A DNA stretch of 41,015 bases from a virus (IMGVR_UViG_2880389630_000006); one strand, 5' to 3'. Counted from the first letter of the stretch, positions 5,931 through 35,521 are shown. Notes: a model not told the origin generated them from the sequence alone. Program-made: numbers and translations.

Positions 5931-5947
5931 ATTACCTTTCAGGTAAT
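5931..5947. promoter_or_regulatory. 17-bp palindromic operator ATTACC-TTTCA-GGTAAT
   Basis: Perfect inverted repeat; same motif family recurs at the immunity region and other promoters (see findings). Confidence 0.55.
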
Positions 5948-5983
5948 TTGCAAAACGTGCTGGATAGCAAACAAATTATTTGC

Positions 5984-6003
5984 TACTGTATAAATATACA
6001 GTT
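5984..6003. promoter_or_regulatory. LexA (SOS) box
   Basis: TACTGTATAAATATACAGTT = CTGT-N8-ACAG with AT-rich centre, near-perfect match to the E. coli LexA consensus TACTGTATATATATACAGTA; lies 20 bp upstream of the ATG at 6023 and overlaps a TATAAA -10-like hexamer. Confidence 0.7.
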
Positions 6004-6022
6004 ATTGCATGGAGAAGATAAG

Positions 6023-6280
6023 ATGCAGCAGTATCACTATCCACTGGAAGACGGATTTACCGAAAGGATTCACACGCCGGGAGGCGTCAGGTCACTGGTG
6101 GAGGGATCGCACTTGATGAAATTACTCCGGGATCTCGATAAGGATGGATTTAATGTCGATGGCCCACTTGCCGAACTGACTGCACTGATTAACTACGTCA
6201 CCAGCTCACAGATGTCTATGCAGGATCTGCAAACACATCTCGACTATTGTGCCGAACAATTACGAAAACAAACCAGATAA
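6023..6280 (+). CDS. Small protein paralogous to the C-terminal domain of the downstream antirepressor; candidate LexA-controlled antirepressor
   Basis: 85 aa from ATG at 6023 with SD ggagaag; LLRDLDKDGFNVDGPLAELTALINYVTSSQMSMQDLQTHLDY aligns with LLNQLQDDGHDVSGAAAELTTMFCYIVGVSKCLRDIQTHAEY in the 6593-7279 protein. The longer track ORF from 5900 is rejected because it would run through the operator, promoter and LexA box. Confidence 0.6.
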   Translation: MQQYHYPLEDGFTERIHTPGGVRSLVEGSHLMKLLRDLDKDGFNVDGPLAELTALINYVTSSQMSMQDLQTHLDYCAEQLRKQTR

Positions 6281-6310
6281 GGTTTGCAATTACCAAGTGG
6301 AGTGCTTAAA

Positions 6311-6327
6311 TTTACCTTTGCGGTAAA
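6311..6327. promoter_or_regulatory. Operator-like palindrome TTTACC-TTTGC-GGTAAA
   Basis: Same 6-5-6 inverted-repeat family, in the leader between the small paralog and the Bro-N antirepressor gene. Confidence 0.45.
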
Positions 6328-6592
6328 TTTACATCGCACTCCTCTTGTGCCATAGTAATCAGGCACTGGCAAAATCCAGTGCCGGGATTGGCGTCCCGGG
6401 TTACTACAGAGGCACATATGCCGCATAAGCGGTTTTTTTATGTGTAAAGCGCACCTATTCTATGGTGGGCTGTGTGGGGGCACCGAAAGGTGCGCCGGGT
6501 CCTTTGTAGCCGGTTACGCCAACCCTGCACAGTTCACCACCAACCGATTGGCGTCGGTAGTGGTGATTAACCTAACTACAAAGGTGATCACT

Positions 6593-7279
6593 ATGACTGC
6601 TAACGTAACCCCATCTGTTTTTCATTTTGAATCAGAAGCAACCATTCGAGCCATTGTTATTGATGGAAATCCTTGGTTTGTTGCCAAAGACGTTATTAAA
6701 GCTCTTCAACTGACAAACCCCACTATGTCAATAAAATCTCTTGATGATGATGAAAGGGCTAAATTTAACTTAGGCCGTCAAGGCGAAACCAATATTATCA
6801 ACGAGTCAGGCCTCTACACACTGATCCTCCGCTGCCGCGACGCAGTGACACCAGGCACTATCCCCTACCGCTTTCGTAAATGGGTTACAGGTGAGGTTCT
6901 TCCTCAGATCCGCCGCACCGGAAGTTACATTAAAAACTCGCTCCCGCAGGAAGAACGCATAAAGATGGTTGCCGACCAGGTAGCCAACGCCACAGCATCA
7001 GCAGTGATGCAGGCAATGAAGATAGAGAACAAAACCTACAGCGCCCCACTGAAGCCCGGCTACCGCAGTCTGATTCATTCTCCGTCTGGTGTTCTCGGCC
7101 TGACGGAGAACTCACTGCTGATGAATCTGCTGAACCAGTTACAGGACGACGGGCACGACGTATCGGGTGCGGCGGCAGAGCTGACCACCATGTTTTGCTA
7201 CATCGTCGGTGTGAGCAAATGCCTGCGTGATATCCAGACGCACGCGGAGTACATCAACGACAAGGCAGGGTTCTTCTGA
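6593..7279 (+). CDS. Phage antirepressor, Bro-N domain family
   Basis: ATG at 6593 with SD aaggtga; N-terminus (IRAIVIDGNPWFVAKDVIKALQL...ESGLYTLILRCRDAVTPGTIPYRFRKWVTGEVLPQIRRTGSY) is Bro-N/antirepressor-like. Confidence 0.8.
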   Translation: MTANVTPSVFHFESEATIRAIVIDGNPWFVAKDVIKALQLTNPTMSIKSLDDDERAKFNLGRQGETNIINESGLYTLILRCRDAVTPGTIPYRFRKWVTGEVLPQIRRTGSYIKNSLPQEERIKMVADQVANATASAVMQAMKIENKTYSAPLKPGYRSLIHSPSGVLGLTENSLLMNLLNQLQDDGHDVSGAAAELTTMFCYIVGVSKCLRDIQTHAEYINDKAGFF

Positions 7280-7343
7280 CGAGCGGCGGCACAGGGATGT
7301 GCCTTTAAATAATTCTGTACAGATTGCAGGTGAATAGCTTACT

Positions 7344-7360
7344 ATTACCTCACGGGTGAT
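7344..7360. promoter_or_regulatory. Operator-like site ATTACC-TCACG-GGTGAT (one mismatch)
   Basis: Same motif family; right half GGTGAT equals the lambda operator half-site. Confidence 0.35.
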
Positions 7361-7447
7361 CCATAGCGATTAGGCACCGATACAGGAGGAGCCCACATGA
7401 GAAAATTTGACGAGTACGAAGGCGTTTAACATTCGGATAGTTTAATG

Positions 7448-7471
7448 ACGGGGCCATTAGGCCCCGTTTTC
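7448..7471 (+). terminator. Rho-independent terminator / possible attenuator
   Basis: Stem acggggcc/ggccccgt with loop atta, then TTTT; sits between a 10-codon micro-ORF (7397-7429, strong AGGAGG SD) and the GTG start of the 7489 gene. Confidence 0.7.
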
Positions 7472-7488
7472 ATGTCTGGAGACAGTTT

Positions 7489-8028
7489 GTGTTAAGTGAA
7501 GAAATGCAATTTGCCATGGCTGTGGCTCAAATCGTAAGTGCAGTCGCGGTTTCGCTTGGCTTGTTCATAGCTATCGCTACTATTATTTATAATGTAAATA
7601 CAGCGAGAAAAGTACACACTTCAGTATTCCTTGGTGAAAGCAGGTTTGATGTAGATTATAAGAAAGGCCTATCTACTATGCGCCGCATTCACGAATCGAA
7701 CAAATCATTCCGCTCTTATATGTATCCAAGCAATGGGCAGGCTGATCTTACGGATGAAGAAAAGACAGAGAAGAGAGAAATAATTTACTGTCTAGGTTTC
7801 TACGAACGCATGGCTGTGAGCGTGAAGCGGAAAACTTATGATGAGACCATGATTAAGGAAGTATTTTACAGCTCCGTTGTAAATAACTATCAGATTGCGC
7901 TACCTCTTATACAAGCCATTAGAGAAAAAGAAAACATAAACACATATTTTAAAGAATATGAATGGTTGGCCACACGATGGAAGGATTGCCCATTGAAGGA
8001 TAAATCCCCGTGGTACAAGTTTTGGTAA
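7489..8028 (+). CDS. Membrane-anchored protein of unknown function (AT-rich moron; candidate superinfection-exclusion or abortive-infection protein)
   Basis: 179 aa; GTG start with SD ggag 8 nt upstream (alternative ATG at 7504); single N-terminal TM helix (AMAVAQIVSAVAVSLGLFIAIATIIY) then a soluble domain; markedly AT-rich relative to its neighbours; opposite strand to the structural operon. Confidence 0.6.
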   Translation: MLSEEMQFAMAVAQIVSAVAVSLGLFIAIATIIYNVNTARKVHTSVFLGESRFDVDYKKGLSTMRRIHESNKSFRSYMYPSNGQADLTDEEKTEKREIIYCLGFYERMAVSVKRKTYDETMIKEVFYSSVVNNYQIALPLIQAIREKENINTYFKEYEWLATRWKDCPLKDKSPWYKFW

Positions 8029-8029
8029 G

Positions 8030-8052
8030 CCAGCGCTGCGGGCTTTTTTTTG
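8030..8052 (+). terminator. Probable intrinsic terminator after the membrane-protein gene
   Basis: GC-rich imperfect dyad (gccagcgctgcgggc) immediately followed by TTTTTTTT. Confidence 0.45.
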
Positions 8053-8123
8053 TGGACGAAACAAAAGTCAGTGCTACACTCATTGACGCCACATTGAGGT
8101 GGCTTATGGATGGAAATTTCACA

Positions 8124-8285
8124 ATGAAAAAAGCATTTGCTGCACTGTTCGTTTTGTTGTCTCTGGTAGCTTCAACTCAGGCCTTTGCCGGCCGTTGTCA
8201 GCACGACAGCGATACTGCCGCTGACGGCTCCCGCTGCGGTGGGCGTTCTGCGGATTCCCGCCCTGGCGGCGGTGGCATTCGTTAA
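8124..8285 (+). CDS. Possible small secreted Cys-containing peptide
   Basis: MKKAFAALFVLLSLVASTQAFA signal peptide then a 31-aa Gly/Arg/Asp-rich segment with 2 Cys; weak SD (alternative ATG at 8106). Speculative. Confidence 0.3.
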   Translation: MKKAFAALFVLLSLVASTQAFAGRCQHDSDTAADGSRCGGRSADSRPGGGGIR

Positions 8286-8308
8286 AAACAAGGCCGCGAA
8301 AGCGGCCT
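8282..8308 (-). terminator. Rho-independent terminator ending the minus-strand structural operon
   Basis: Perfect hairpin aggccgc-gaaa-gcggcct (8291-8308), followed on the minus strand by a T-run (plus-strand aaaaac at 8284-8289). Confidence 0.6.
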
Positions 8309-8320
8309 GTGACATGTCAC
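8309..8320. repeat. 12-bp perfect palindrome GTGACATGTCAC, copy 1 of 3 (function unknown)
   Basis: Exact sequence; lies between the lipoprotein stop codon and the terminator hairpin. Confidence 0.9.
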
Positions 8321-8323
8321 GAC

Positions 8324-8737
8324 TTATAAAGATGACTGATATTTTACAACTCTGTTCATGGCATCTTTTTTCACCGAGCTGATATCAGTTCTTATTTTGG
8401 CTTCGTCATTACTGCTTATCATGCTATTAATTTTTTGCACTGACATGCCGTTTCTTTCAGCCATTGCACATACAGCAGCATCGTATGAAGAACTCGCTGC
8501 GATGGATATCACCTTGTTACACTCAAACACAGCACCTTCAGCAATATCAGATGCCGATGAGGCTGGCTTGGTATAAGTCTTGACGTAGTGATCAATACAA
8601 CTATCCTTCGCCGTCTTGGCAAGAGAAAAATCCACTTTAACTTTGTCGCAATATGCCTTATCAACACCGTCATAAACATCATAGGATGTCGAGCAAGCGG
8701 ATATCAAAAATACCGATAACAGCAATAATTCCTTCAT
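8324..8737 (-). CDS. Lipoprotein, last gene of the structural operon (candidate receptor-masking or exclusion lipoprotein, or tail accessory protein)
   Basis: Lipobox LISAC after a signal peptide; SD aaggaac; 6 further Cys residues; immediately downstream of the 824-aa virion protein gene. Confidence 0.65.
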   Translation of the reverse strand: MKELLLLSVFLISACSTSYDVYDGVDKAYCDKVKVDFSLAKTAKDSCIDHYVKTYTKPASSASDIAEGAVFECNKVISIAASSSYDAAVCAMAERNGMSVQKINSMISSNDEAKIRTDISSVKKDAMNRVVKYQSSL

Positions 8738-8746
8738 TGTTGTTCC

Positions 8747-11221
8747 TTATTGCGGAGTGACATCCTGAGGTCGCCACCAGTATGTCTGGTTAAACTCTTT
8801 CTTCGAACGTTGCTCCATTTTACGCAAATAGCCTGGTGAAAAATACTCCTGCATCTGATTAAAGATCATGTGATCGAGAGCCGCCTTCAAGTACCAGAGA
8901 TTCGCACCAGGCATCAAACCTTTCCCAAGCTTAACCAGATCACCACCAGTCTGCTCATTCTTCCCTTCCACAGCATTTAACGGTATGCCCTGAGCAATCT
9001 TCACTACGTCATCAACCAGACCAGCTACCGGGCCAAGCATCGACGCTAGTGCGCCGCTCCCGTACCTGGTGTGGTCAGAGAAAAGAAAATCACCATACAA
9101 CCCTGCCCCACCACCTTTTAAAAATGCATTTATCCAGAATTTAACCATGTTGTCACCGGTCATTTCTTTTGGATTTCTCCCATTAATAAGATCAGTAATC
9201 TGCATGGAAAGAGCACCAAGCATGGTTGTGCTTGCTAAAAACGTTGCTATATATGCCGCACGCCCACCAGCAGACGGCATACCCATAGCGCGTGACCAGT
9301 GACGCATAACAACCGAGATAGGGAACGATTTAAACAGGAAAACACTTCTCGTTAATTCACCTTTCCATGTTCCACGCTGAAGACCAGACCCTACGAACAT
9401 CTGTTCACGTGCGCCCGGTGTAATAACAGCCATATCAACTTCTTCAGTTACGGCACCGAGCAGTTTACGCATTGCCTCAAATTTCACGCGTTCAGACTCA
9501 CCAAGATGTTTAACTGCTGAATCAGGGATACGCATAATGCTTTCCGGTGTCAGCATCGTATTATTACCGTTCCCCCAGTCCTCCTGTTGCGCCAGCTTCC
9601 ATACGCTCCAGTCTGTGTCAGTAATCCCTTTGCTTTTCAGGATACGAAAATCAGAGTCATCGAGGCTACGAAGGTCTGGTGTCCGTGACACTACTTCTCC
9701 CAGGCTTCCCATCATGGTTACGCCATAAGCGCGCTTGTGCGCATCTGACCATGCTGTAAGCCCACTGGCACGCATTACCGCCGTTGCCGCCCAACGAGAT
9801 ACTGACGGCCCCATATTATCCATCGCCCAGCGGTTAACGCTGCCAAGTAGAGATTCCATCGCCAGACCAGCGCGGCGCGCCCGCGCAAGTTCTGTACGGT
9901 TCGTTGGGTCCATAGCTTCAAGCTGGTTGCGGAATAACTGGTTCATTGGAAGGTTGGTCACCTTCGCAGACAGATACATGGTTCCAAGATCAGAGAACGA
10001 TGACAGCAACGCGGATCCGAGTCTGCTGGCAACCAGCCAGTTGCGGATATTGTCAGACCATCGCGCGATGTGCGGATTCGCTACAGGCTGTGTCTTTCCG
10101 GAAATAAAGTTGTACAGATTCTCTGTTTTGTTCGCCAGCCGCTCGACGCTACCGGTTTTACTCGGGTTAGCTGTTGCCGTTTCTGCCTTCACCTGATCAA
10201 GAAGGGAACGGAAAACATGATCGGGGTTTGGACCATATGTTTCCACCAAAGCAATATCTTTACTGATACCTTCCAGGTGACCGACCATGATTTCCCATAG
10301 AGAGCGATCGCCATAAAGTTGCTGATATTGCAGATAGGAATCTGCATCTTTGAAATGTATCTGTCGTGATGCATTACCACGGTTAGCACGTGCGCCGGAA
10401 ATTCGCATTCCGGTATCAGTAAGCTTATTCAGCCCACCAGTAGCGATCGTGTTATAAGCCTCTCCAAGAAATGCAGACAACTCGGCATCGTTCATCAGTT
10501 GTCCATCGGCTCGGGTATAATATTTGCGATCCAGCTTACCTATAACATCGCTAACCCACTTATCCTTTGATACCGCCCCAACCTTTTCCATAGAATGATG
10601 TTGAGGGATCCCCCAGTTTTCGAGATAGCCAATGTCCCCACCAGCATCATTAAACCGGCGGCGCAGCAGCTCTGTAACTTCTCTCCACGCCTTAGCACCT
10701 TTTCTTGCTTTAGCATTGCCAGTATTTTGCCCCCGCATTTCATATACCAGGTCACGTACGCCCGCTTCATCTTCAAACAGGCCAAAAAAGCGAGGATCAA
10801 CTGCTTCAAATGCCTCCTGCAATTGACTCAATGCATAATCACGAGTGGCTTTTGTTCTGGATTCAACAGAGAGGAAATTCGATTTACCGTCTGCATTAAA
10901 AGCAATAGTACGGTTAAGAGCGCCAAGTTTCCCATCAGCCCCTTGATAGCTATTGATAAATTTATCCAATCTCTGACGTGCGGCTATAGTGAGGGCCACA
11001 CGACGTTTCTTTAATGCCGCTTCTCGCTGTAATTCTTCAGATGCCAATTGTGCTGCACGATACAACCGTTCTGATTCGGAAAGTTGTCGCCACGACATAG
11101 GGTCATCACGAGCAATGGAGCGCATATTTCGATAAATGCGGTCTTCAATGTTCTGTATTTCTCGCGCCGTTAACGTGCGCTGCGCCGCCTGCTGGACCGC
11201 TTGTATACATTCCTGTCTCAT
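8747..11221 (-). CDS. Large virion internal / ejection protein (T7 gp16-like position)
   Basis: 824 aa, no TM or enzymatic motif recognised; assigned by position in the structural operon. Confidence 0.55.
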   Translation of the reverse strand: MRQECIQAVQQAAQRTLTAREIQNIEDRIYRNMRSIARDDPMSWRQLSESERLYRAAQLASEELQREAALKKRRVALTIAARQRLDKFINSYQGADGKLGALNRTIAFNADGKSNFLSVESRTKATRDYALSQLQEAFEAVDPRFFGLFEDEAGVRDLVYEMRGQNTGNAKARKGAKAWREVTELLRRRFNDAGGDIGYLENWGIPQHHSMEKVGAVSKDKWVSDVIGKLDRKYYTRADGQLMNDAELSAFLGEAYNTIATGGLNKLTDTGMRISGARANRGNASRQIHFKDADSYLQYQQLYGDRSLWEIMVGHLEGISKDIALVETYGPNPDHVFRSLLDQVKAETATANPSKTGSVERLANKTENLYNFISGKTQPVANPHIARWSDNIRNWLVASRLGSALLSSFSDLGTMYLSAKVTNLPMNQLFRNQLEAMDPTNRTELARARRAGLAMESLLGSVNRWAMDNMGPSVSRWAATAVMRASGLTAWSDAHKRAYGVTMMGSLGEVVSRTPDLRSLDDSDFRILKSKGITDTDWSVWKLAQQEDWGNGNNTMLTPESIMRIPDSAVKHLGESERVKFEAMRKLLGAVTEEVDMAVITPGAREQMFVGSGLQRGTWKGELTRSVFLFKSFPISVVMRHWSRAMGMPSAGGRAAYIATFLASTTMLGALSMQITDLINGRNPKEMTGDNMVKFWINAFLKGGGAGLYGDFLFSDHTRYGSGALASMLGPVAGLVDDVVKIAQGIPLNAVEGKNEQTGGDLVKLGKGLMPGANLWYLKAALDHMIFNQMQEYFSPGYLRKMEQRSKKEFNQTYWWRPQDVTPQ

Positions 11222-11226
11222 TTAAT

Positions 11227-13029
11227 TTAACCTCTCAAGAAACACGCCACAGCGACATCAAACAGGCTGGAATCCTGTATTGCCTGCTCACTTTCCCTGT
11301 TCGCTTCATCCAGCACTTCACGCGCGCTGCGCGATTGTGGATTACCATCATCATCCAGCACGGTGATTATCATGTCAGGTGATTCAAGCAGCGAGTCTTC
11401 AGCTATGCGCAGATCAATATCTCCTGCCTGATCCGCCATCATTTTTTGTTCTGCATGTTGCAATATTTTATCAGGCTCAAAAGGAGCTACTTCGTCTGGC
11501 GTCCTGACCTCTGCTGTTTTATAGAATGAAACAGCCTGAGCATTAAGTTCACTTTCTGCCTGCTGTCTCCGAGCCAGTTCTGCTCGAGCTTCAAAAAACT
11601 GACCGCCAGGCTCATGCGGTGCCAACGCGTTACGGGAAAATTCCAGGCGTTCTTGTGCCTGCCGGATTCGTTGTTCAATATCGCGAATTCTGGCCTGTTT
11701 ATCTGATCGAGCACGAGACAAAGCTTTACCGCTACCAGTTGGCTCTTCTGCAAGAATTTGTGCACGCTGTTCAGTGAGATTTTCAATAATTCGTTGGCTA
11801 TTAGCGATTTCAGACTGGTAAACCTGTCTATCTCCACGCGGCAAAAGCTGCGCGGCCTGTTCTTCAAGCAACCGATTTTCTATAGCGCGCGCCGTTACTC
11901 CATCATCTACAGATGACAGAGCCTCATTAACTGCCTGAGACAGCAGACTCTTGCGCCCAGGAATTTCACTGAAAGATGCAGACTCAACAATGCTGGCAAC
12001 GTCTACAGGTCTCCCCTGGCTAACATCAGACATAGCTTTTCGCAGAGCCTGAATGTGAGAATTGCGCGAAAGCACGTTGATCGGCACGCCGGGCGCAATA
12101 TCAATTTCAGCATGATGAGCGGCATTCGCCGCCAGTGCAGCATCAACATCAACTGGTGAAAAATTTGGTGCGCTTGTAGACTCGCCGCGAGAGTTAATAA
12201 ATCTGCCGACTCCACCAAAAGCCACCCCAAGAACAGCATCAATAGCAATTGCCTGTCGATCCAACACATCATACTGGTTAGCCATTTCGCTATAGCCACC
12301 ATCACGAAGCGTTTTTGCAGTAAGCCCGCGCTGTGCCATACCGAACGCAATATTTGTACCTGCGGCATAGGCAATATCTGGCGTTGCACGTACTGCTGTT
12401 GCCGCGGCGCGTCGCACTGAACTTTCACCCGTCCGCGCAAGCTGAGCCGCCACACCTTCCGCCAGCGCACCACCAGCACGTAACCCGAGACTCATAGGGA
12501 TCAGTGTTCCGGCACCAGCAGTAATACCCTGCACTAATCCCGCTTCCTGCGCCGTCCTGAAATCAACCCCCTGCGCTGTCAGTCGTTCAAACTCAGAAAA
12601 ACCCTGTAGCGAAGTTACCGCCGCAGCACCTCCGACCGGACCACCGAGCGTTGTACCGACAACAGCCTGCCCGCCCATATCGAACAACCCATAAAGAACC
12701 TGCCCTGCGGTTCCGGTTGTCGCGGCATCAGGCGTCAGCCGCTTAACCTGCTGCTCTGCTAGTTTTCTCTGCTCGGCAATGTATGAAACTGAAGTGTCAT
12801 TGAGCGAGGTGTTTTCGTTAACAAACTGAGCAATCGGGGATACGATTTTATCCATCCCTGCCCATAGCAACTGATCTGGCTTTGCCACCAGCCCGGAGTA
12901 CAAACCAGACAATGCCGCTCCTACAGCATTGTCGAAAAAACCAACATCGCTGTTAAAGCCAACTGGATTTGATGCTGCTTCGTCAAGCTGCTGATTCTGG
13001 TTTACTGGATTAAGGCCAAAGTAACTCAT
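11227..13029 (-). CDS. Virion internal protein, Gly/Ala-rich
   Basis: 600 aa, Ala/Gly-rich central region and coiled-coil C-terminal half; positional assignment. Confidence 0.55.
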   Translation of the reverse strand: MSYFGLNPVNQNQQLDEAASNPVGFNSDVGFFDNAVGAALSGLYSGLVAKPDQLLWAGMDKIVSPIAQFVNENTSLNDTSVSYIAEQRKLAEQQVKRLTPDAATTGTAGQVLYGLFDMGGQAVVGTTLGGPVGGAAAVTSLQGFSEFERLTAQGVDFRTAQEAGLVQGITAGAGTLIPMSLGLRAGGALAEGVAAQLARTGESSVRRAAATAVRATPDIAYAAGTNIAFGMAQRGLTAKTLRDGGYSEMANQYDVLDRQAIAIDAVLGVAFGGVGRFINSRGESTSAPNFSPVDVDAALAANAAHHAEIDIAPGVPINVLSRNSHIQALRKAMSDVSQGRPVDVASIVESASFSEIPGRKSLLSQAVNEALSSVDDGVTARAIENRLLEEQAAQLLPRGDRQVYQSEIANSQRIIENLTEQRAQILAEEPTGSGKALSRARSDKQARIRDIEQRIRQAQERLEFSRNALAPHEPGGQFFEARAELARRQQAESELNAQAVSFYKTAEVRTPDEVAPFEPDKILQHAEQKMMADQAGDIDLRIAEDSLLESPDMIITVLDDDGNPQSRSAREVLDEANRESEQAIQDSSLFDVAVACFLRG

Positions 13030-19627: not shown

Positions 19628-19953
19628 TCACCCCCGTTACCGTAAAGGGTTTCAGCAGCGGATTTATCCGGCTCGCCGGTTGCAGGTGCGATCGCCATGT
19701 CGGTGATCTGCAGGTCTGCGCTACGGTTAACGCCGTCATCAGTTTCGCGGGCAGACAGTCCGCGAATTACCGCCTTAGCAGTAATCATCACTTCGGTTCC
19801 TACACCCTGCGGTTGCGCCTTGAGCTTATTCAGCGTGTCATTGTTCAACGTGATGCAAAGCCCCCATGGATATTCGTCGCGGTTTTTGGTTTCTCCGCTC
19901 TCGTCCTGGTAGCTGTCGGTGCCGATTTTGAGGTTGACCAGTTCCATATACAC
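19624..19953 (-). CDS. Small head/tail-junction protein
   Basis: 109 aa ORF translationally coupled to the downstream tail gene. Confidence 0.45.
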   Translation of the reverse strand: MYMELVNLKIGTDSYQDESGETKNRDEYPWGLCITLNNDTLNKLKAQPQGVGTEVMITAKAVIRGLSARETDDGVNRSADLQITDMAIAPATGEPDKSAAETLYGNGGE

Positions 19954-24725: not shown

Positions 24726-24793
24726 ATCAATGACTCCGTACGCAATTAAATCATTACCAATTTAACCACATATGATTTATTTATCGTAGAATG

Positions 24794-24831
24794 TTGACAT
24801 TTAACGCGTGAATTATTACCTTTCAGGTAAC
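24794..24831 (+). promoter_or_regulatory. Putative promoter (TTGACA -35) with overlapping operator ATTACC-TTTCA-GGTAAC upstream of the tRNA
   Basis: TTGACA at 24794-24799; the 16-bp operator core at 24815-24830 is identical to the site at 5931. The -10 element is ambiguous. Confidence 0.4.
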
Positions 24832-25229: not shown

Positions 25230-25427
25230 GAATCACGCCTAAGGACCGTGATGCCAGAAGTTCCAGGGGCTTGGCGGTGATGGTTTCCCTTGAAGGACTA
25301 TCACCGCCCTTTTTACAGCAGGACGCCATTGCGATGACTTCATGCTGTAAACCCGTACAGCCACGGAAGGCATAACTCATTGCTTCCAGTTCGCCCGGTT
25401 CGCCGGGCATTTTTTTAAGGTGAGATT

Positions 25428-27365: not shown

Positions 27366-27994
27366 TGATTACCATCCTGACGTTCTTTGAGTCGCTTCCT
27401 GGCTGCTGCTATGCGATCAGCAATTGTCACATTCACATTAACATCCAGACGTTCTTTGAATGCGTTGACATCAACATGCTTACCAATCAGCTCAAGGTTC
27501 TTCACCTTGTCAGGCCATTTCACCTTCTTCAGGATATGCTCGACATCCTCAACAGAGAGATCCGCCTCGCCATTCTCTTTTTGCAGGGAAGCCTGGGTTG
27601 TCTTGATGGTAGCGATATCCATAGCACTGAGAGAGGTACGCCAGACCTTCGGCCATTCAGCGATCGGCTTCATCCCGCCGTCATCGTTCAGTATATCCAG
27701 CACGTCCATCTGGTCGATCTCCACCAGGCGCATGAGAACGTAATCAGCACTGACGCGCATTCGTTTGTTGCGCTCCTCCATCAACTCGGCAATCCGTTTT
27801 TGAATGCGTTCATCGCGCATCATGACACTTGCTTTAACTGCCGCTGTATTTGGGGAGAATCCTGCGTTAATCGCTGCCTGAGTCTGGTTTTCAGGCGTTT
27901 TGATGTATGACTGGCAATAAGCCTCCTGCATTGCTGTTAGTGGCTTAAATTGCGTTGATTTACGTTTATAGGTTTTAGGTTCAGCAGGCATCAT
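27362..27994 (-). CDS. Terminase small subunit
   Basis: Internal ATG at 27994/27991 (MMPAEPK...); the track start is TTG and its extension runs through a tandem DNA repeat, so it is rejected. Confidence 0.6.
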   Translation of the reverse strand: MMPAEPKTYKRKSTQFKPLTAMQEAYCQSYIKTPENQTQAAINAGFSPNTAAVKASVMMRDERIQKRIAELMEERNKRMRVSADYVLMRLVEIDQMDVLDILNDDGGMKPIAEWPKVWRTSLSAMDIATIKTTQASLQKENGEADLSVEDVEHILKKVKWPDKVKNLELIGKHVDVNAFKERLDVNVNVTIADRIAAARKRLKERQDGNQ

Positions 27995-28068
27995 AACCAC
28001 CGTGGTAATAGTTACCGTTGTGGTAATAGTACCATGCAAAATAAAGCCGCCATAGTTGGCGGCAGTAT

Positions 28069-28640: not shown

Positions 28641-28672
28641 TATTTACCTTTATCGCGAACACATTTACCGGT

Positions 28673-28915
28673 TTATCTCCTTTGCATAGCACGTAATTTT
28701 TTCAGATGGTTCTCCTGTTCTGTTTCAGCCAGGATCTGGTGATATTCTCTGTGATCAATGTGTTCGAATAAATTATTGAATTTTCTGATGCACACTCTTC
28801 CAGGATAGCCATCCATCCTCTTGAAGAATACTGAGTGATCAGTACTACGAATGATTTTTACTGGATAGCCAGCGCTATCGGTGTATATCTGACCACGTTG
28901 AATCAGAGAGAACAT
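28673..28915 (-). CDS. Hypothetical small phage protein
   Basis: 80 aa ORF, AT-rich. Confidence 0.4.
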   Translation of the reverse strand: MFSLIQRGQIYTDSAGYPVKIIRSTDHSVFFKRMDGYPGRVCIRKFNNLFEHIDHREYHQILAETEQENHLKKLRAMQRR

Positions 28916-28981
28916 TCGTTTATCCCCAGATAAAAATATAGCAATACCAATTACATAAAATACTTCAGGCCAAGCATCATT

Positions 28982-29515: not shown

Positions 29516-29516
29516 A

Positions 29517-29924: not shown

Positions 29925-30436
29925 GCCGCGTTTCCTTCTTTCTTATTAACAATCACACCGTCATATATTTCATTAAGGTGCCCTCTCAACTCCATGCGCC
30001 TTAATGCAGATAACATGTAATCGCATTCAACCTGCTTATTCCCAGTAAATGGCTTATCGTCAGGATTACCCCAACAGCAATTACCCCTGGGCCATCCATG
30101 TACTTTCCGTACTCTTCCGTTAACAACGTGAAGTAATCCCCAGCCGGGAGGTAAATCCTCAACTGAAATAATTTCCGGCTCACTAATAAAGAATCGCCAG
30201 TCGCCCATGCCAAGTGAGGGATTTTTACGGAAACGCTTTTTTCTATCTGCCAACAAGTCAGCACGAGAACACTTCGCCTCTATCAGGCATGATGCTGAAT
30301 TTCTGAATCCCATAGCATCTGGCTGTTCTCCGGTACTGGTTACAGCAACAAAGCGGTCATGAAAGCAAACCTTGAACCCGTTGCGCTTAAGGAACTTGTA
30401 CGCAATCTGACAGAGTTCGTGGTGTGTTAACGCCAT
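29921..30436 (-). CDS. PD-(D/E)XK nuclease-like protein (tentative)
   Basis: ATG at 30436 with SD AAGGAGAG; D...EAK motif (PDAMGF...CLIEAKCS) consistent with a restriction-endonuclease-like fold. Confidence 0.4.
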   Translation of the reverse strand: MALTHHELCQIAYKFLKRNGFKVCFHDRFVAVTSTGEQPDAMGFRNSASCLIEAKCSRADLLADRKKRFRKNPSLGMGDWRFFISEPEIISVEDLPPGWGLLHVVNGRVRKVHGWPRGNCCWGNPDDKPFTGNKQVECDYMLSALRRMELRGHLNEIYDGVIVNKKEGNAA

Positions 30437-30437
30437 A

Positions 30438-30881
30438 TCACTCTCCTTTGATGCGAATGCCTGTTGCAATGCTGTTTATGATGCTGTCAGTGCATGGGGT
30501 AGAAAGCTGGGCATCTCCAGCAATTTTCATGACCTCAACATCTGCATATCGAATACCGAGGTGTATCAGACCGGCTATGCCTGACTTAAGCCGAGCATTT
30601 TCCATAAATAGAACTTTTGCCCGCTGTTTTTCTGCTTCAAGCTCAACGCGCAGCTTCCCTACCGTTAGCGCAATATCCTCGTTCTCCTGATCGCGGCTTT
30701 TGATGTATTGCAGGTTTCTTTCCCGTTCATCCAACAATGCCAGCGCGATATCTGGCGAAAAGTGCTTCATAAAATCGTTAAGCGCATTAATTCGCTGATC
30801 GAAAGGCATTACAGGTGCTTCACCAGCAATTTTTGTTTTTTCAGCGATTTCACGAAGCTTTTGATAATCAATCTTGCTCAT
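30438..30881 (-). CDS. Ead/Ea22-like protein
   Basis: N-terminus MSKIDYQKLREIAEK and coiled-coil centre typical of lambdoid Ea22-like proteins. Confidence 0.5.
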   Translation of the reverse strand: MSKIDYQKLREIAEKTKIAGEAPVMPFDQRINALNDFMKHFSPDIALALLDERERNLQYIKSRDQENEDIALTVGKLRVELEAEKQRAKVLFMENARLKSGIAGLIHLGIRYADVEVMKIAGDAQLSTPCTDSIINSIATGIRIKGE

Positions 30882-31315
30882 TGGATGACTCCTTTACGAA
30901 GCTGGGCGGCTAACTCATCACATATGTGCGTCAAAGAACAAAGTTTGATTGATGGATGTTCGCGCATCATCTCTACCCCCTGCGCCCGCACTTCAGACAG
31001 GAAAGCATCGGTGGCTGGCATATTTCCTGTTGCCTTCATTGCCTCCAAAATAACCAGAACGCCATCTCGCCCAATCTCCTCGCAGATAACCTCGGTGCTG
31101 TCGCCAACAACATCGCAAAATGCCTGAACTGCTTTACGAGCCAGCGCATTCTCCGCAGCCAGCGCATTAGCACGCACCAGTTGCACTTCCAGCTGCGTTG
31201 CCAAATCGCTGATCAGCTTTGCCACACTGCGCATATCAACGGCACCACATTCTGCTTTCAGTTCCGAAGCCATCTCATGCCCGGCGGAAACTAACCCTTT
31301 GATATTACTTTCCAT
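30878..31315 (-). CDS. Hypothetical phage protein
   Basis: 145 aa ORF overlapping the downstream start. Confidence 0.45.
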   Translation of the reverse strand: MESNIKGLVSAGHEMASELKAECGAVDMRSVAKLISDLATQLEVQLVRANALAAENALARKAVQAFCDVVGDSTEVICEEIGRDGVLVILEAMKATGNMPATDAFLSEVRAQGVEMMREHPSIKLCSLTHICDELAAQLRKGVIQ

Positions 31316-31376
31316 CTTTACCCTCGCTTATCCACATAACTTATTGATTACATTGATAACTAAAAAGATCGTCGAT

Positions 31377-31985
31377 TCATGCCGATCTATTTTTCATCAG
31401 TGATTCATAAAACTTTTGCCACTTATGCCGACCGAAATTAGCCTTCGAGTTACAGCTCGAACAAAGGCAAATAAGGTTCTCCTGACGACAATCTTGCTTG
31501 TCGTAATTGATGTGATGAGTTGTTAGCCTTTTGTCTGTTCCATCACAACCTGGGTTCTGACAAGTAAAACCATCTCGCTCAATAACCCTCTTGCTCGTTT
31601 CTCGGAAATCCCACGGATACGGCAATCTCGATAATCCACCAGACCAGTTTGGATTTCCTTCCCCCTTCATCAGAGAAGAACGCATTATGTTGGAACACTG
31701 TTTCGAGCAGCATTTATGACGCTTCTCATGACTCAAGAAAACGGAGAACGAAGATCCGCATACGCAGCATATTTTTAATACTCGCTTTAGTTCCCGATTT
31801 ACCGTCTTGCCTCGCTGTGAAATTCCTACACACTGAAGTGAGCAGAACCTTGAAGATGAGTTGGCTCGCTTAACCTGATATTGCCTGCCACATACGGAGC
31901 AAACCTTTTCGATTTTCCCACCCTTCCAATTCGGGTTTTTATCACCGGATACAATCAATCCCGCAGCATTGGGCTTCTCGCTCAT
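31377..31985 (-). CDS. HNH endonuclease with repeated Cys-rich zinc-ribbon motifs
   Basis: HNH-type motif TTHHINYDKQDCRQENLICLCSSCN; two N-terminal CxxC...C clusters (VCSVCGRQY..., ICCVCGSSF...). Confidence 0.75.
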   Translation of the reverse strand: MSEKPNAAGLIVSGDKNPNWKGGKIEKVCSVCGRQYQVKRANSSSRFCSLQCVGISQRGKTVNRELKRVLKICCVCGSSFSVFLSHEKRHKCCSKQCSNIMRSSLMKGEGNPNWSGGLSRLPYPWDFRETSKRVIERDGFTCQNPGCDGTDKRLTTHHINYDKQDCRQENLICLCSSCNSKANFGRHKWQKFYESLMKNRSA

Positions 31986-32335
31986 AGTTCCTCAACCTCC
32001 CATCCACCACCGAGCTTTTTAGGTTTTGGATAAGCAACCTGAAAGACAAACGGATAGCTGTCTGCCGCAACCTTCATCTTGACTCTCGCATCGTCAGTAA
32101 AGACTGACTTACTTCCCTTAACGTCCACCATCACCAACTGCCCGTCAGCCAACATCACGGCAAAATCTACAGTCAGGAAGCAGTTGTCAGCTAACCGTAG
32201 CTTGATACCCTCGAATCGATACCAGGCGATTTCCCCTGCACGTTTACGAAGCTCAAGGTGCTGGCAATACGCAGATTCTGTTTTGTTCATCTGGCCTGTT
32301 TTGAGTCGACCAAGAGCCTGTATCTGTTTTCTCAT
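31982..32335 (-). CDS. DUF1064-like PD-(D/E)XK nuclease (tentative)
   Basis: 117 aa; AGEI...FE and DF...VDVKG motifs reminiscent of the DUF1064 phage nuclease family. Confidence 0.5.
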   Translation of the reverse strand: MRKQIQALGRLKTGQMNKTESAYCQHLELRKRAGEIAWYRFEGIKLRLADNCFLTVDFAVMLADGQLVMVDVKGSKSVFTDDARVKMKVAADSYPFVFQVAYPKPKKLGGGWEVEEL

Positions 32336-32337
32336 GA

Positions 32338-32354
32338 TTTACCCCTGAGGTAAT
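32338..32354. promoter_or_regulatory. Operator TTTACC-CCTGA-GGTAAT abutting the start codon at 32335
   Basis: Perfect 6-5-6 inverted repeat. Confidence 0.5.
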
Positions 32355-32399
32355 TAAAAACCACATAAGACACGAAATCAATAGATTTTAGAATATTTT

Positions 32400-32416
32400 A
32401 TTACCTAACAGGTAAT
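32400..32416. promoter_or_regulatory. Operator ATTACC-TAACA-GGTAAT
   Basis: Perfect inverted repeat 46 bp from the previous site, between the P-like and DUF1064-like genes. Confidence 0.5.
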
Positions 32417-32452
32417 TGTCGAGGCGTAAAAAAATGCGCTATCGCGCTGGTA

Positions 32453-33253
32453 TTACTTGATAAATCCTGCCGCCTTTCCCCGCCTGTATTCCTCCATCAG
32501 CCACTGCGCCGGTGTTATTCCCCCCAGGGTAGCGGCGTTAGGCATACACCCGAAACTTCGCCCTGGTGGATGGTAAACGTCTCTCCCTGTGTCCGGAGGC
32601 GTACTCATGGGTTCTGGCTTTGCCTGTATGCTGATCACCGGATCGGGTATCTGCTGTCCGGAAGCCACCTTTTTCGCCCAATCATCAAGCAGCCTGCGCG
32701 CGTGTTTCTCAACCTCAATCTCGCTAAGCTGGCGCTGATACATTGCACGGCGGGTATCACATACGACCCAGTACATAACCGGATGCCGCCACGGGAATCT
32801 TTCGGGACCACCAGGATATAAACTTTTTTCCTTGCTGTACCGGTGAAACTCCGCCATCACATCGTCAATGGTGACGCCAAGAACCATCTTGCTGTCTTTA
32901 CACCACTTGATAAATTGCCCTGGCGACGGCCAGAACGGAGATTCACTGGCGCGGGCGTGGCGCATACCAGCAGAAACCTGTTCACGGGTTCGGATCCCCC
33001 CTTCGGCAAACGCAGCAATCCACTGCTGTTTTGCAGCAACTTCCTGCTCTGGCGTCTTCAGGTTGGTTACCACTGCCGCCGGAAACAGTTGTTTCAGCTG
33101 TTTAAAAAGGGCATCAACAAGCCTCTCTGCTGACATGTTCACCACATTGTCATTGTTGACGTACTGATGCTCATAACCTGACATGCGAGAAAGGGCTTCT
33201 CCGTCACGGTTTTGTATCGCGGTAAAAACGTTGTTCACAAGAAATCCTCCCAT
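32453..33253 (-). CDS. Replication protein P-like (helicase loader)
   Basis: Strong similarity to lambda P: here LFPAAVVTNLKTPEQEVAAKQQWIAAFAEGGIRTREQVSAGMRHARASESPFWPSPGQFIKWC versus lambda P LATFPASLANRDQNEVNEIRRQWVLAFRENGITTMEQVNAGMRVARRQNRPFLPSPGQFVAWC (recalled from memory). Confidence 0.85.
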   Translation of the reverse strand: MGGFLVNNVFTAIQNRDGEALSRMSGYEHQYVNNDNVVNMSAERLVDALFKQLKQLFPAAVVTNLKTPEQEVAAKQQWIAAFAEGGIRTREQVSAGMRHARASESPFWPSPGQFIKWCKDSKMVLGVTIDDVMAEFHRYSKEKSLYPGGPERFPWRHPVMYWVVCDTRRAMYQRQLSEIEVEKHARRLLDDWAKKVASGQQIPDPVISIQAKPEPMSTPPDTGRDVYHPPGRSFGCMPNAATLGGITPAQWLMEEYRRGKAAGFIK

Positions 33254-34050
33254 GCTTCAGGGCTGTTCCAGTGCGGAACGTTGTTATCAGGTAATGTTGA
33301 TTGCTTCTGTCTGCTAATCTGCAGCCGCCTTGCCAGCTTCTGCTCCCACTGTGCCTGATGGTATGCCTTACCCTCAGCCATCCAGTAAATTCTGAACTCT
33401 GCAAGTTCCTGTGCCGTTGGCAGACTGTCCAGGTAGATCCCCTGCAATGAGCTTTTCCGAAGAAAGTCATCTGATGGCTGCCATTGTTCATGCATGACAA
33501 ATTTGCCTAATTGCCCTGGCCCACCAGGAGGAACAAAGTTATTCATCACGGCGTTGTTTGCTCCGGGGTCATGAGGCACAGAATCCCCGCTTTTTGTCCT
33601 GCTCTCCCTCTCTTGGTTAAATGACTGGTTATATGACTGGTTCTGGATCCCGTTTTTGGGATCATTCAACATCCCGTTTTTGGGATCATTCAACATCCCG
33701 TTTTTGGGTATATTCCCGTTTTCGGGTATATTCCCGTTTTCGGGTTCATTGCCCCCCTCCCGGTTGCCTTTAATGTTCCCGTTTTTGGTTATATTAAGAG
33801 AGAAAACCCGCACTCTTTTTGTCGCTCCCTTTCTCTCTCCGGTATCTGAAATAATCCCCATTTTCATGAGCGATATAAGCCCGGCCTGCACGGTTTTTTT
33901 ATTCAGGCAAGTGTCTTTAACGAGGCGTTCTATGCTGGGGTAGCAGAGGTTATATTCATCGGCTCTGTCAGCCATCGAGAGCAGTATGAGCTTTAATGAT
34001 GAGCTACCTGGATCTGTCTCCCAAGCCCAATCTGTTGCATGTCTGCTCAT
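33235..34050 (-). CDS. Replication initiator O-like protein
   Basis: HTH-containing N-terminus, iteron array inside the coding region (Asn/Gly/Pro peptide repeats), immediately upstream of the P-like gene. Confidence 0.7.
   Translation of the reverse strand: MSRHATDWAWETDPGSSSLKLILLSMADRADEYNLCYPSIERLVKDTCLNKKTVQAGLISLMKMGIISDTGERKGATKRVRVFSLNITKNGNIKGNREGGNEPENGNIPENGNIPKNGMLNDPKNGMLNDPKNGIQNQSYNQSFNQERESRTKSGDSVPHDPGANNAVMNNFVPPGGPGQLGKFVMHEQWQPSDDFLRKSSLQGIYLDSLPTAQELAEFRIYWMAEGKAYHQAQWEQKLARRLQISRQKQSTLPDNNVPHWNSPEAWEDFL
33647..33796. repeat. Replication-origin iterons (about 6 copies, core TCCCGTTTT(T/C)GGGAT)
   Basis: Two identical 24-bp units atcccgtttttgggatcattcaac (33647-33670, 33671-33694), then four shorter variants through 33796, followed by an A/T-rich tract; palindromic core like lambda ori iterons. 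Confidence 0.7.
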
Positions 34051-34065
34051 GATTAATCTCCGCTA

Positions 34066-34266
34066 TCAGCTTGAATGTTGTGGGGAGGAATTAATCATGA
34101 TCTGCTTAATCTCTGCCCTGATGCGACGGTTTGACTCCATGGTGCACTCAACACAGTGTCCGTTGTAAACCCAGCGTTCACTGTCATGTCCGTGCTTACA
34201 TGGTTTTCCGGTGTAGTAGCGTTTAAGTCCGCGCTTTGCGGCATCAATACGTGTAATGATTTCCAT
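34066..34266 (-). CDS. Small Cys/His-rich protein (zinc-binding?) in the cII-equivalent position
   Basis: ATG at 34266 (MEIITRIDAAKRGLKRYYTGKPCKHGHDSERWVYNGHCVEC...); no similarity to lambda CII recognised. Confidence 0.4.
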   Translation of the reverse strand: MEIITRIDAAKRGLKRYYTGKPCKHGHDSERWVYNGHCVECTMESNRRIRAEIKQIMINSSPQHSS

Positions 34267-34344
34267 GGTAAGCCCTGTTATTAGTATTGGGATTACGGTT
34301 ATTTTGTGCTGACACAAAAAAAAGATCAACCAGATTTGGTTTTT

Positions 34345-34361
34345 TATTACCTTTGAGGTAC
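34345..34361. promoter_or_regulatory. Operator-like site ATTACC-TTTGA-GGTACG (degenerate right half)
   Basis: Same motif family, between the Cro-like gene and the next gene. Confidence 0.35.
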
Positions 34362-34416
34362 GAATAGATATGAAAAGACCGCCGGATGGCGGTCTACAGA
34401 GGGTTGTTGCCAGATA

Positions 34417-34647
34417 TCATGAGTAGAAGAAGTATGCCAGTTCCGCTTTTGAGCGCAGCCATTGTCTTGTTTTACATGCTTTAAAAAGCCCATTCATCAA
34501 TACCTTACCTGGCATTTTGCGCTTACCTGTTAAGTGAGTCTGGATATAGTGACTCGTCGTTCCGGCTTCCTGTGCGAAGGCTTCACGCTCATCCGGAGTA
34601 AGTGCAAGCCAGTGCTTTTTGAAATCGAAATGTCCGTTATCGCTCAT
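34417..34647 (-). CDS. Cro-like HTH regulator
   Basis: 76 aa, divergent from the repressor gene across the operator cluster; HTH-like AFAQEAGTTSHYIQTHLTGKRK. Confidence 0.5.
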   Translation of the reverse strand: MSDNGHFDFKKHWLALTPDEREAFAQEAGTTSHYIQTHLTGKRKMPGKVLMNGLFKACKTRQWLRSKAELAYFFYS

Positions 34648-34682
34648 AGCTATTGCCTGATATTTATTTCAGATAATAAATA

Positions 34683-34747
34683 TTCACCCATAAGGTAACA
34701 AAAATCAAGGATAGTTACCTATGGGGTGCATTTACCTGTTGGGTAAT
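34683..34747. promoter_or_regulatory. Immunity-region operator cluster (three 17-bp sites) with divergent promoters
   Basis: Sites TTCACC-CATAA-GGTAAC (34683-34699), GTTACC-TATGG-GGTGCA (34714-34730), TTTACC-TGTTG-GGTAAT (34731-34747) in the 154-bp gap between the Cro-like and repressor genes. Confidence 0.55.
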
Positions 34748-34801
34748 ATTGCTTTAAATTGAATCATCTACTGATTCATATATGAGGCGATTTTCCAGAA
34801 A

Positions 34802-35386
34802 ATGAAAAGTATCCAGGACGTCCGCAGGCAAAATCTCAACGACTTGATCGACCGTGAATTCAATGGTGTTCAGACGCGGATGGCAGAAAAACTTGGAACT
34901 CAGGCAAATCTGGTAAACCGCTGGGCTCTTGGCAAGAAGGTTATCGGCGACCAGGTTGCGCGAAAAATTGAAGCTGCCGCCAATAAACCCCGTAACTGGC
35001 TTGATATCGATCGCTCGCTTTCTCAGGAAGGTTTTCAGCCTGTCGGCCCAAGCGACATTGGTCAGCTGGCAGCTCACAACCTGGAACGCTGGATGAGTGA
35101 AAGCCGCGACCTTTCAACTCAGGGAAAACTTCACCGCGCATCCGGCGTCGCCCAGGTGACAATCAGCCGCCTGTTAAACAATGAGGTCAGCGTTTCCATT
35201 TCCACCCTGGAGAATGTTGCATCCGCATTCGGGCGTCACGGATATGAACTACTGATTCACCCGCACGACCCTGCGACTATCAACTATGACCGCTCACGCT
35301 ACGCATTGTTACCCGAAACCGAGAAAGCAAAGATCGAAAGTTACATTGAATTTGTCATCAACCAGAACGAAAAAAACAAACAATAA
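34802..35386 (+). CDS. Prophage repressor, tandem HTH-XRE domains, no S24 peptidase domain
   Basis: Two HTH-like segments (GVQTRMAEKLGTQANLVNRW and ASGVAQVTISRLLNNEVSVSISTLENVASAF); no Ala-Gly/Ser-Lys autocleavage motifs; divergent to the Cro-like gene. Confidence 0.65.
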   Translation: MKSIQDVRRQNLNDLIDREFNGVQTRMAEKLGTQANLVNRWALGKKVIGDQVARKIEAAANKPRNWLDIDRSLSQEGFQPVGPSDIGQLAAHNLERWMSESRDLSTQGKLHRASGVAQVTISRLLNNEVSVSISTLENVASAFGRHGYELLIHPHDPATINYDRSRYALLPETEKAKIESYIEFVINQNEKNKQ

Positions 35387-35406
35387 AACCATATTTTTCA
35401 GTAAGT

Positions 35407-35431
35407 AAGCCGCCTTATGGCGGCTTTTTTA
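35407..35431 (+). terminator. Rho-independent terminator after the repressor gene
   Basis: Stem aagccgcc/ggcggctt, loop ttat, then TTTTTT. Confidence 0.85.
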
Positions 35432-35442
35432 TTGCCTATTCG

Positions 35443-35521
35443 ATTACCTAACGGGTAATTTTTTTAACTCATATCTATTGACATCAAACCATATACGCAT
35501 AATTATTACCTCAACGGTAAC
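35443..35521 (+). promoter_or_regulatory. Early promoter with two operators (OL-like)
   Basis: ATTACC-TAACG-GGTAAT (35443-35459); TTGACA at 35478-35483; A/T-rich -10 region overlapped by ATTACC-TCAAC-GGTAAC (35505-35521). Confidence 0.5.

Follow-up and report, generated by a model that had tools for sequence, protein, structure and literature searches.

Background

Repressor-binding sites scattered over a phage genome have been described before, and the closest such systems serve here as reference for the window analysed in this work, i.e. the whole 41,015-nucleotide stretch of viral DNA IMGVR_UViG_2880389630_000006 (one strand, positions counted from its first letter), in which the 17-bp inverted repeat ATTACC-N5-GGTAAT recurs far from the immunity region. 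The GenBank record of Salmonella phage epsilon15 (AY150271.2) contains seven features annotated as 'protein_bind: repressor, lysogeny'. They lie at 12-27 (before terS), 2931-2947 (before gp3/portal) and 19895-19911 (between gp19(ant) and the tailspike gene), at 32479, 32554 and 32616 (beside the early-left operon) and at 35906 (before a nin-like endonuclease). All seven read ATTACC-N5-GGTAAT. The GenBank record of phage phiV10 has no repressor-site features annotated.

The structure of the repressor Rep of Salmonella phage SPC32H has been solved (PDB 5D50/5D4Z). According to PMC9638917, the DNA-binding form of this protein is a tetramer in which different dimers supply the DNA-binding domains that grip each palindrome (citing Kim 2016). 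The same paper states that its C-terminal domain (CTD) is the part that binds the antirepressor Ant, and that the tetrameric antirepressor disrupts the Rep assembly. Further afield, phage P1 has 22 C1 operators of 17 bp dispersed over its genome (PMC8546580), and mycobacteriophage L5 and other Cluster A phages carry many repressor sites over the genome, known as stoperators, which stop elongation (PMC9283540).

Results and discussion

Enrichment of the palindrome

We propose, with a probability of roughly 0.8, that the dispersed palindromes of the window are operators of its immunity repressor, also called Rep here, possibly shared with a neighbouring Cro-like protein. The exact pattern occurs three times (5931, 32400 and 35443), compared to 0.00 in 100 dinucleotide shuffles of the window. 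Allowing up to two mismatches gives 15 matches, compared to a shuffle mean of 1.08 and a shuffle maximum of 4. We also derived a 21-column matrix from 50 sites in five further phages, excluding the window from training in order to avoid circularity. This relatives-only matrix finds 13 window sites of at least 10 bits, compared to 0.48 per shuffle in 200 shuffles. In six complete phage genomes there are 14-18 motif matches each, with about 1.5 expected, and the chance level of matches with up to two mismatches is about 1-2 per genome. Matches at 2719, 15541 and 30065 were rejected as operators, being weak, inside genes and at the chance level.

A sequence-only reading of the window had listed at least 12 sites. 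Ten of the 12 do lie within two mismatches of the consensus; the one placed at 34345 starts at 34346, those at 34683 and 34714 are degenerate, and a pair before terS (27993 and 28011) had been missed. The site at 34683 has three mismatches to the strict consensus, yet scores 16.9 bits. The site at 34714 has four mismatches and only 7.6 bits, and was accepted because strong sites (23-28 bits) hold the equal position, -87 from the rep start codon, in epsilon15 and SPC32H. The predicted operators are as follows, with matrix scores in bits and without strand.

5931-5947: tailspike/ant operator in a divergent control region; exact match; 27.1
6311-6327: operator at the second antirepressor module, conserved; 20.5
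7344-7360: cargo-slot operator, after the Bro-N gene; 15.2
24815-24831: gp3/portal operator, upstream of the minus-strand structural operon; 24.0
27993-28009 and 28011-28027: terS operator pair, between a terminator and the terS ATG (27991, minus strand); 11.5 and 21.2
32338-32354: downstream operator of the nin-like cassette, with conserved sequence ATTACCTCAGGGGTAAAtcATG; 20.7
32400-32416: upstream operator of the nin-like cassette, before the DUF1064 'nin-like' block; exact match, 62 bp from 32338; 25.9
34346-34362: post-cro operator, after the cro terminator and upstream of the replication operon; 14.8
34683-34699: operator in the right-operator-like (OR) region, TTCACCCATAAGGTAAC, inside the spacer of a putative cro-directed promoter; 16.9
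34714-34730: middle OR operator, weak, GTTACCTATGGGGTGCA; 7.6
34731-34747: OR operator over the putative rep promoter; 21.9
35443-35459: upstream operator of the early-left (PL-like) promoter; exact match, 62 bp from 35505; 21.8
35505-35521: downstream PL operator, covering about -8 to +9; 21.3

With start codons set by the annotation of homologues (ant ATG at 6023; terS ATG at 27991, minus strand), all 14 sites fall in non-coding DNA and no curated gene contains any of these symmetric sequences. The longest-ORF (open reading frame) map alone puts four sites inside ORFs, and homologue annotation was therefore used for the starts. Some sites carry the half-site ATCACC or GGTGAT. The operators occupy at least nine separate regions of the window, which bears out the earlier view that this family extends far beyond the immunity region.

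The repressor and the Cro-like protein

Megablast of window positions 31000-37000 returned Escherichia phages phiV10, PAS61, ZX5, phiv142-3 and TL-2011b at 95-98% identity, and BLAST of the whole window aligned it colinearly with phiV10, in the opposite orientation. Its sequence similarity thus places the window among the phiV10/epsilon15-like E. coli prophages of the genus Uetakevirus. The two candidate binding proteins are encoded divergently:

34802-35386, plus strand: immunity repressor Rep, 194 aa, two helix-turn-helix (HTH) domains
34417-34647, minus strand: Cro-like small regulator, phrog_35 'transcriptional repressor' (E=5.6e-13)

Rep matches the SPC32H repressor (PDB 5d50) over residues 1-190 with E=4e-42, and its C-terminal domain matches the SPC32H Rep CTD. 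Pfam finds HTH_3 only and no LexA-type (S24) self-cleaving peptidase domain. Rep is 100% identical to the phiV10 and ZX5 repressors, 78% to that of Enterobacter phage Tyrion, 45% to those of Klebsiella phages and 42% to those of epsilon15 and SPC32H. Residues around the first HTH (N36, L37, V38, R40 and W41 among others) are invariant in seven Reps that are 42-78% identical to the window Rep, which fits one common motif. Overexpression of the identical ZX5 protein blocked lytic growth, abolished free phage and lowered holin mRNA by 99.97% in a study that included no operator mapping (PMC9782041).

The Cro-like protein is 58-84% identical between clades and contains an invariant stretch, AGTTSHYIQ.HLT. 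We regard Rep as the best candidate binder of the 17-bp sites, because the sites cluster at rep, the first-HTH residues are invariant and the epsilon15 authors likewise attributed them to the repressor. The Cro-like protein could share the operators, as lambda Cro does, CI and Cro of lambda sharing theirs.

Conservation of positions and variation of spacers

The comparison covered ten phages and prophages of seven genera, in which Rep identity falls as low as 42%: six complete phage genomes (four host genera) and four prophages, found in Pseudocitrobacter, Pseudescherichia, Serratia and one divergent lineage of E. coli. A search of genome contigs with Rep gave two loci only. A search of IMG/VR with the Rep alignment gave 80 loci, all with identical Rep, which inform on population variation and not on deep divergence.

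The OR sites near -70 and -118 from the rep ATG are present in 10/10 genomes (the latter, the counterpart of 34683, at about -118/-119), and the middle site near -87 in 7/10. The post-cro site lies at -456 from the rep ATG in eight genomes and at -443 in the prophage locus L007, and it is absent from L090. Downstream of rep, the PL operators are 62-63 bp apart in nine genomes and 75 bp apart in L090. The nin-like pair is 62 bp apart in seven of the ten and 18 bp apart in L007 and L090; L003 lacks it. As for the distal classes (terS, gp3, ant/tailspike and post-ant), synteny holds in Escherichia, Salmonella, Enterobacter, Klebsiella and Serratia elements, also where their flanks are unrelated. 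The syntenic placement extends to hundreds of IMG/VR contigs. There the ant-proximal site occurs in 76 of 79 ant loci, the terS pair is found at -36/-18 relative to its start codon in 60 of 61 loci, and in 51 loci exactly 40 nt separate the gp3 operator from the CATATGTGGTT that follows it. The distal sites are thus conserved, being syntenic in the ten phages and prophages and in 51-76 IMG/VR loci per class. The earlier reading had named a lack of such conservation in related prophages as grounds for its refutation, and this outcome clearly speaks against that.

Within the 80 loci of identical Rep, the half-sites are invariant, while more than 15 different 5-base spacers occur in the upstream PL and nin operators. 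The equivalent of the upstream nin operator 32400-32416 alone has more than 20 spacer variants in these 80 prophages (L008-L087). In the 154 bp between rep and cro, the variation falls mainly in the operator spacers, and operator 34731 is identical in 80/80 loci. Within the control region, variability peaks at the upstream PL operator, in its spacer and in the six bases that precede the operator (equivalent to 35437-35453). Entropy at the variable PL positions is 0.4-1.3 bits, compared to a mean of 0.13 at rep third codon positions. Invariant half-sites with variable spacers are the signature of a protein reading both half-sites. The spacer variability could stem from tuning, from gene conversion among the operator copies or from a hot spot of mutation.

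Immunity region and early cassettes

As the earlier reading had it, three OR-like sites (34683, 34714 and 34731, the middle one weak) lie between the end of the cro-like gene (34647) and the start of rep (34802), and two operators flank the early-left promoter. Operator 34683 overlaps a promoter-like sequence on the minus strand, TTGTTA-17-TATTAT (34701-34673). Operator 34731 begins with TTTACC in every case, and this half doubles as the -35 element of the putative rep promoter, with a -10 element TTAAAT at 34754-34759. This combination, TTTACC-17-TT(T/A)AAT, is kept in most of the ten genomes and not in L007. The overlap suggests negative autoregulation of rep.

The PL-like promoter and its surroundings form a compact cassette with the following promoter element:

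35478-35506, plus strand: PL-like promoter TTGACA-17-AATTAT, 10/12 consensus

The upstream operator 35443 is followed by a T-tract, and the final two bases of the -10 element are the initial two of operator 35505. The promoter is kept across nine genomes. The nin-like cassette on the minus strand has the same layout: an operator, 18 nt, TTGATT, 17 nt and TTTAAT, which overlaps the second operator. The spacer of operator 32338 contains the ribosome-binding site, with the ATG 2 nt beyond. Alignments show both operator-promoter-operator cassettes to be conserved in the genomes compared.

The post-cro operator follows the cro terminator (34395-34376, minus strand). Beside it, on the plus strand, CCAGATTTGGTTTTTTATTACC at 34330-34351 resembles the -10/operator junction of the nin cassette in the opposite direction. 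A promoter here would, speculatively, run antisense through cro towards rep, with the geometry of lambda PRE.

Late units

The terS operator pair is preceded by an extended -10-like TGgTACTAT. The structural, tailspike and lysis units share a different element, to which the operators stand at set distances:

24763-24775, minus strand: late-promoter-like element CATATGTGGTT-N5-GGTAATAAT of the structural operon (function predicted)
5891-5903, minus strand: copy at the tailspike unit
3140-3152, minus strand: copy at the lysis unit
3159-3164, minus strand: lone GGTAAT half-site before the lysis cassette, a putative operator remnant

The element reads CATATGTGGTT-N5/6-(G)GTAWAAT with no -35 element and with a near-palindromic core, CCATATGTGGTT. 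In most phages compared it stands at the head of these three units, and a single operator precedes it by 40 nt (gp3/portal), 28 nt (tailspike) and, in relatives, 31 nt (lysis). It is probably an activator-dependent late promoter, and is reminiscent of P1 late promoters. CATATGTGGTT was also considered as a second operator half and rejected; only the adjoining GGTAAT matches.

The gp3/portal operator is syntenic in six phages, with upstream flanks unrelated between clades. The distances of operator 5931 to a LexA box (38 nt) and to the late element (28 nt) are fixed in most of the six. The lysis operator is complete in phiV10, epsilon15, SPC32H and Tyrion. In the window the oac gene of phiV10 is absent, whole-window BLAST shows a homology break at this lysis-side joint, and the remaining half-site 3159-3164 falls exactly there. 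Several operators stand at mosaic joints and may serve as recombination points too.

Antirepressor modules and cargo slot

Two antirepressor routes are predicted, each with a candidate Rep operator in its control region: a LexA-controlled Ant and a C4/Bro-N module. Their features, and the cargo gene beyond them, are:

5986-6001, no strand given: LexA (SOS) box, perfect, CTGTATAAATATACAG, 21 nt before the ant start codon
6023-6280, plus strand: small antirepressor Ant, 85 aa, positional counterpart of SPC32H_020 'ant'
6363-6439, plus strand: isrK-like small RNA (Rfam RF01394, 74.7 bits)
6458-6544, plus strand: C4 antisense RNA (Rfam RF01695, 79.5 bits)
7489-8028: DUF4760 gene (E=8.3e-31), variable cargo behind operator 7344

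The LexA box is conserved in six phages. A second CTGT-N8-ACAG occurs at 25345, between the tRNA gene and a gene-66-like ORF. Ant belongs to phrog_450 and weakly matches the anti-repressor phrog_1760. A promoter-like TTTACA-17-CATAGT (6328-6356) directly adjoins operator 6311, and a Bro-N antirepressor ORF (Pfam E=7.8e-20) downstream of the C4 RNA ends at 7279. By analogy, the isrK/C4/Bro-N arrangement is the P1 immI operon layout.

Phages phiv142-3 and TL-2011b have the same 7344 site and upstream flank with different downstream genes, and in both a putative cargo promoter, TTGCAG-17-TACTAT, overlaps the operator. The window has a 4-bp deletion in the spacer of this promoter. In TL-2011b the slot holds a gene annotated by RefSeq as a YafO-family toxin. 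The position of operator 7344 implies a cargo predicted to be silent in the lysogen, the reverse of a classical moron.

The earlier suggestion that the sites outside the immunity region sit at moron promoters holds for 7344 alone, the one that precedes variable cargo. Most distal sites stand before conserved core units, which are terS, the gp3/portal structural operon, tailspike/ant, the genes for replication and the 'nin-like' block with DUF1064. A supposed link to tRNA-Arg expression is not supported either. The tRNA-Arg(UCU) gene is present in the window, phiV10, SPC32H and BUCT711 and absent from epsilon15 and Tyrion, whereas the 24815-class operator occurs in all six, including these two. 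A promoter scan found no sigma-70-type promoter towards the tRNA near 24815, and the conserved TTGACA at 24794, only 11 nt from a -10-like AATTAT, was rejected as such. The conserved partner of operator 24815, judged by synteny, is the structural operon.

Further features of the window

Pfam assigns the two host-like ORFs in the leftmost ~1.1 kb (1-1071) to a glycine-zipper/TraT-like lipoprotein and a DUF5384 protein, and the integrase gene (39759-41015) is cut at the right edge. The left edge is therefore probably host flank, and the window is a prophage with this one flank and without the int-proximal attachment region. About 93% of it is coding on a greedy ORF map. The early-left operon encodes a PerC-like 'transcriptional activator'. 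A DnaT-like replication gene contains two identical 20-nt hairpin units 24 bp apart (33657-33700; TGGGATCATTCAACATCCCG then TTTTTGGG), which may be origin iterons. A match upstream of int in relatives, ATTACCYTAAAGGTATA, which lies outside the window, was rejected as a Rep operator; its last bases deviate consistently, its spacer is invariant and epsilon15 annotates an integrase site there.

Comparison to known systems

Epsilon15 belongs to the same genus and has the same motif at positions syntenic with the window sites, although its Rep is only 42% identical. Its record lacks the OR sites, the post-cro site and the second site of each pair, all of which both phages carry by our analysis. There are two PL operators in the window and three in epsilon15, and the window has extra operators at the c4/Bro-N module and the cargo slot. 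SPC32H has a homologous Rep, an identical motif at the same positions, and a small ant in the equivalent place with a LexA box; the window also has the second antirepressor module (isrK, C4 RNAs, Bro-N).

The earlier label of the sites as lambda-like holds for the geometry: a divergent rep/cro pair with three operators between, and 17-bp 6-5-6 operators with a half-site one base from ATCACC. It does not hold for the repressor, which is a homologue of SPC32H Rep and, unlike lambda CI, has no S24 self-cleavage domain; induction of SPC32H/epsilon15-type Rep goes through an antirepressor. Nor does it hold for the layout, with operators in at least nine regions instead of two and pairs 62 bp apart or abutting at 17-18 bp. 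Membership of the lambda switch thus fails on two defining features.

The likeness to the P1 C1 regulon lies in one repressor with many operators at many operons. The P1 operators are asymmetric (ATTGCTCTAATAAATTT) whereas the window motif is palindromic, and no homology of C1 to Rep was detected, Pfam finding only HTH_3-type domains in Rep. As in P1 immI (c4-icd-ant), a C4 antisense RNA lies upstream of an antirepressor gene, and in P1 the c4/ant module is itself under a repressor-controlled promoter. The late promoters of P1 are controlled indirectly. Cluster A stoperators are 13-bp, asymmetric, orientation-dependent, monomer-bound and elongation-blocking, and many stand within or between the genes of long operons. 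The window sites are symmetric and promoter-linked and lie outside curated genes, and thus lack the defining stoperator features. On sequence grounds the system is an epsilon15-type Rep operator set. In its working it would come closest to the P1 C1 regulon, although its sites are symmetric and its repressor is unrelated to C1.

The dispersed design being annotated for epsilon15, a congener, it is already known; the annotation of seven such sites there supports the regulon idea, which is therefore not new. We found no description of the 62-bp cassette, the c4-module operator, the variable spacers or the genus-wide operator code in records or the secondary literature; these details are modest and may well be in the primary epsilon15 or SPC32H papers. 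A full-text literature search for a degenerate consensus, ATTACCWDWWNGGTAAT, gave no match.

Weighing the alternatives

Several observations weigh against Rep acting as a simple operator-bound repressor at all of these sites. Sigma-70 consensus matches in these control regions are no commoner than in shuffles, and a 62-bp loop would be very tight. The gp3, tailspike and lysis operators lie an estimated ~78, 66 and 72 bp upstream of the predicted late starts; this is outside the polymerase footprint and the helical phase is not constant, and simple occlusion is therefore inadequate. Rep at these single operators might bridge to the GGTAAT half-site overlapping the -10 at gp3 and tailspike. Other possibilities are that it obstructs an upstream element, that its target is the divergent promoter or that it is an auxiliary anchor. 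The last of these, in which the single operators at gp3, at the tailspike and after cro (at lysis in relatives) are anchors that increase the Rep concentration locally, looping sites or read-through roadblocks and not promoter operators, is in our view improbable but deserves to be taken seriously. The sites do lie far upstream of the predicted -10 elements and after terminators or at divergent junctions, and Cluster A offers a precedent for repressor sites that stop elongation (PMC9283540). The window sites are, by contrast, symmetric, always intergenic and at fixed distances (40 nt, 28 nt) to promoter elements, which points to an action linked to promoters and not to orientation-dependent roadblocks. 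Each single operator is, moreover, already preceded by a terminator.

The Cro-like protein is conserved at least as well as Rep, and sequence alone therefore cannot assign the distal sites to one of the two. It is unlikely, if far from negligible, that the Cro-like protein is the main user of the distal sites, in lytic growth, e.g. for the shutdown of early or accessory genes, with Rep confined to the immunity region. Its invariant HTH could read the genus-wide motif, and the lambda proteins set a precedent. Placement before late units and antirepressor genes that need silence in a lysogen fits a lysogenic repressor, however, and the epsilon15 authors assigned the sites to the repressor; the two uses are compatible. 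We give very little credence to the repeats being mainly recombination junctions at module boundaries with little regulation. Such a role would account for the conserved upstream flank and differing downstream cargo at 7344, for the unrelated gp3 upstream flanks and for the bare lysis half-site where oac is missing, but the invariant half-sites with variable spacers, the 62-bp cassettes and the -10 overlap are what protein binding predicts, and junction use could be a by-product. That the matches arise by chance or from AT-rich promoter DNA is practically out of the question: the three of 15 matches that lie in genes are at the chance level, but no shuffle reached the observed counts, the sites are syntenic, and the enrichment recurs in the six genomes.

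Proposed circuit

Under the reading that we prefer, with Rep as the main user of the operators, Rep would sit in the lysogen at the head of almost every transcription unit. Through the three OR sites it would gate the cro promoter and its own promoter. Its other operators would bring under its control the early-left operon, the replication operon and the DUF1064/nin-like block, as well as terS-terL, the gp3/portal structural operon, the tailspike/ant region, the c4-RNA/Bro-N module and the cargo slot. Its inactivation would proceed through an antirepressor and not through self-cleavage. In the early-left and nin-like cassettes one operator would cover the -10/start site and a second would lie exactly 62 bp upstream, and a single Rep tetramer, whose DNA-binding domains form two pairs, could grip both and so clamp the promoter. 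At terS, the abutting pair would lie on the start site and the ribosome-binding site. The structural, tailspike and, in relatives, lysis units would each have a lone operator ~65-80 bp upstream of the predicted late start.

We tentatively extend this to a 'flat' circuit for Uetakevirus, which is a possibility that we think rather doubtful as a whole: one tetrameric repressor would directly gate every transcription unit, among them the packaging, structural, tailspike and lysis operons and both antirepressor modules, via 62-bp pairs or single upstream sites. The operator code and the recognition helix are common to the genus, and immunity specificity might therefore sit in the Rep C-terminal domain and its Ant partner and not in the recognition of operators. 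The spacers, unusually variable for prophages that are otherwise nearly identical, would perhaps tune operator strength. The records consulted describe none of these ideas.

Conclusions

The current understanding of these phages is unchanged, because the design is already annotated for epsilon15. The regulatory code can nevertheless be recovered from the raw sequence alone, and the compact promoter-operator cassette offers a means to study promoter clamping by a tetrameric repressor. The operator map is usable for phiV10-type E. coli prophages, including the O157 typing phages and TL-2011b, whose records lack one. It predicts which genes would be silent in the lysogen and jointly switched on at induction, including both antirepressor modules and the cargo slot.

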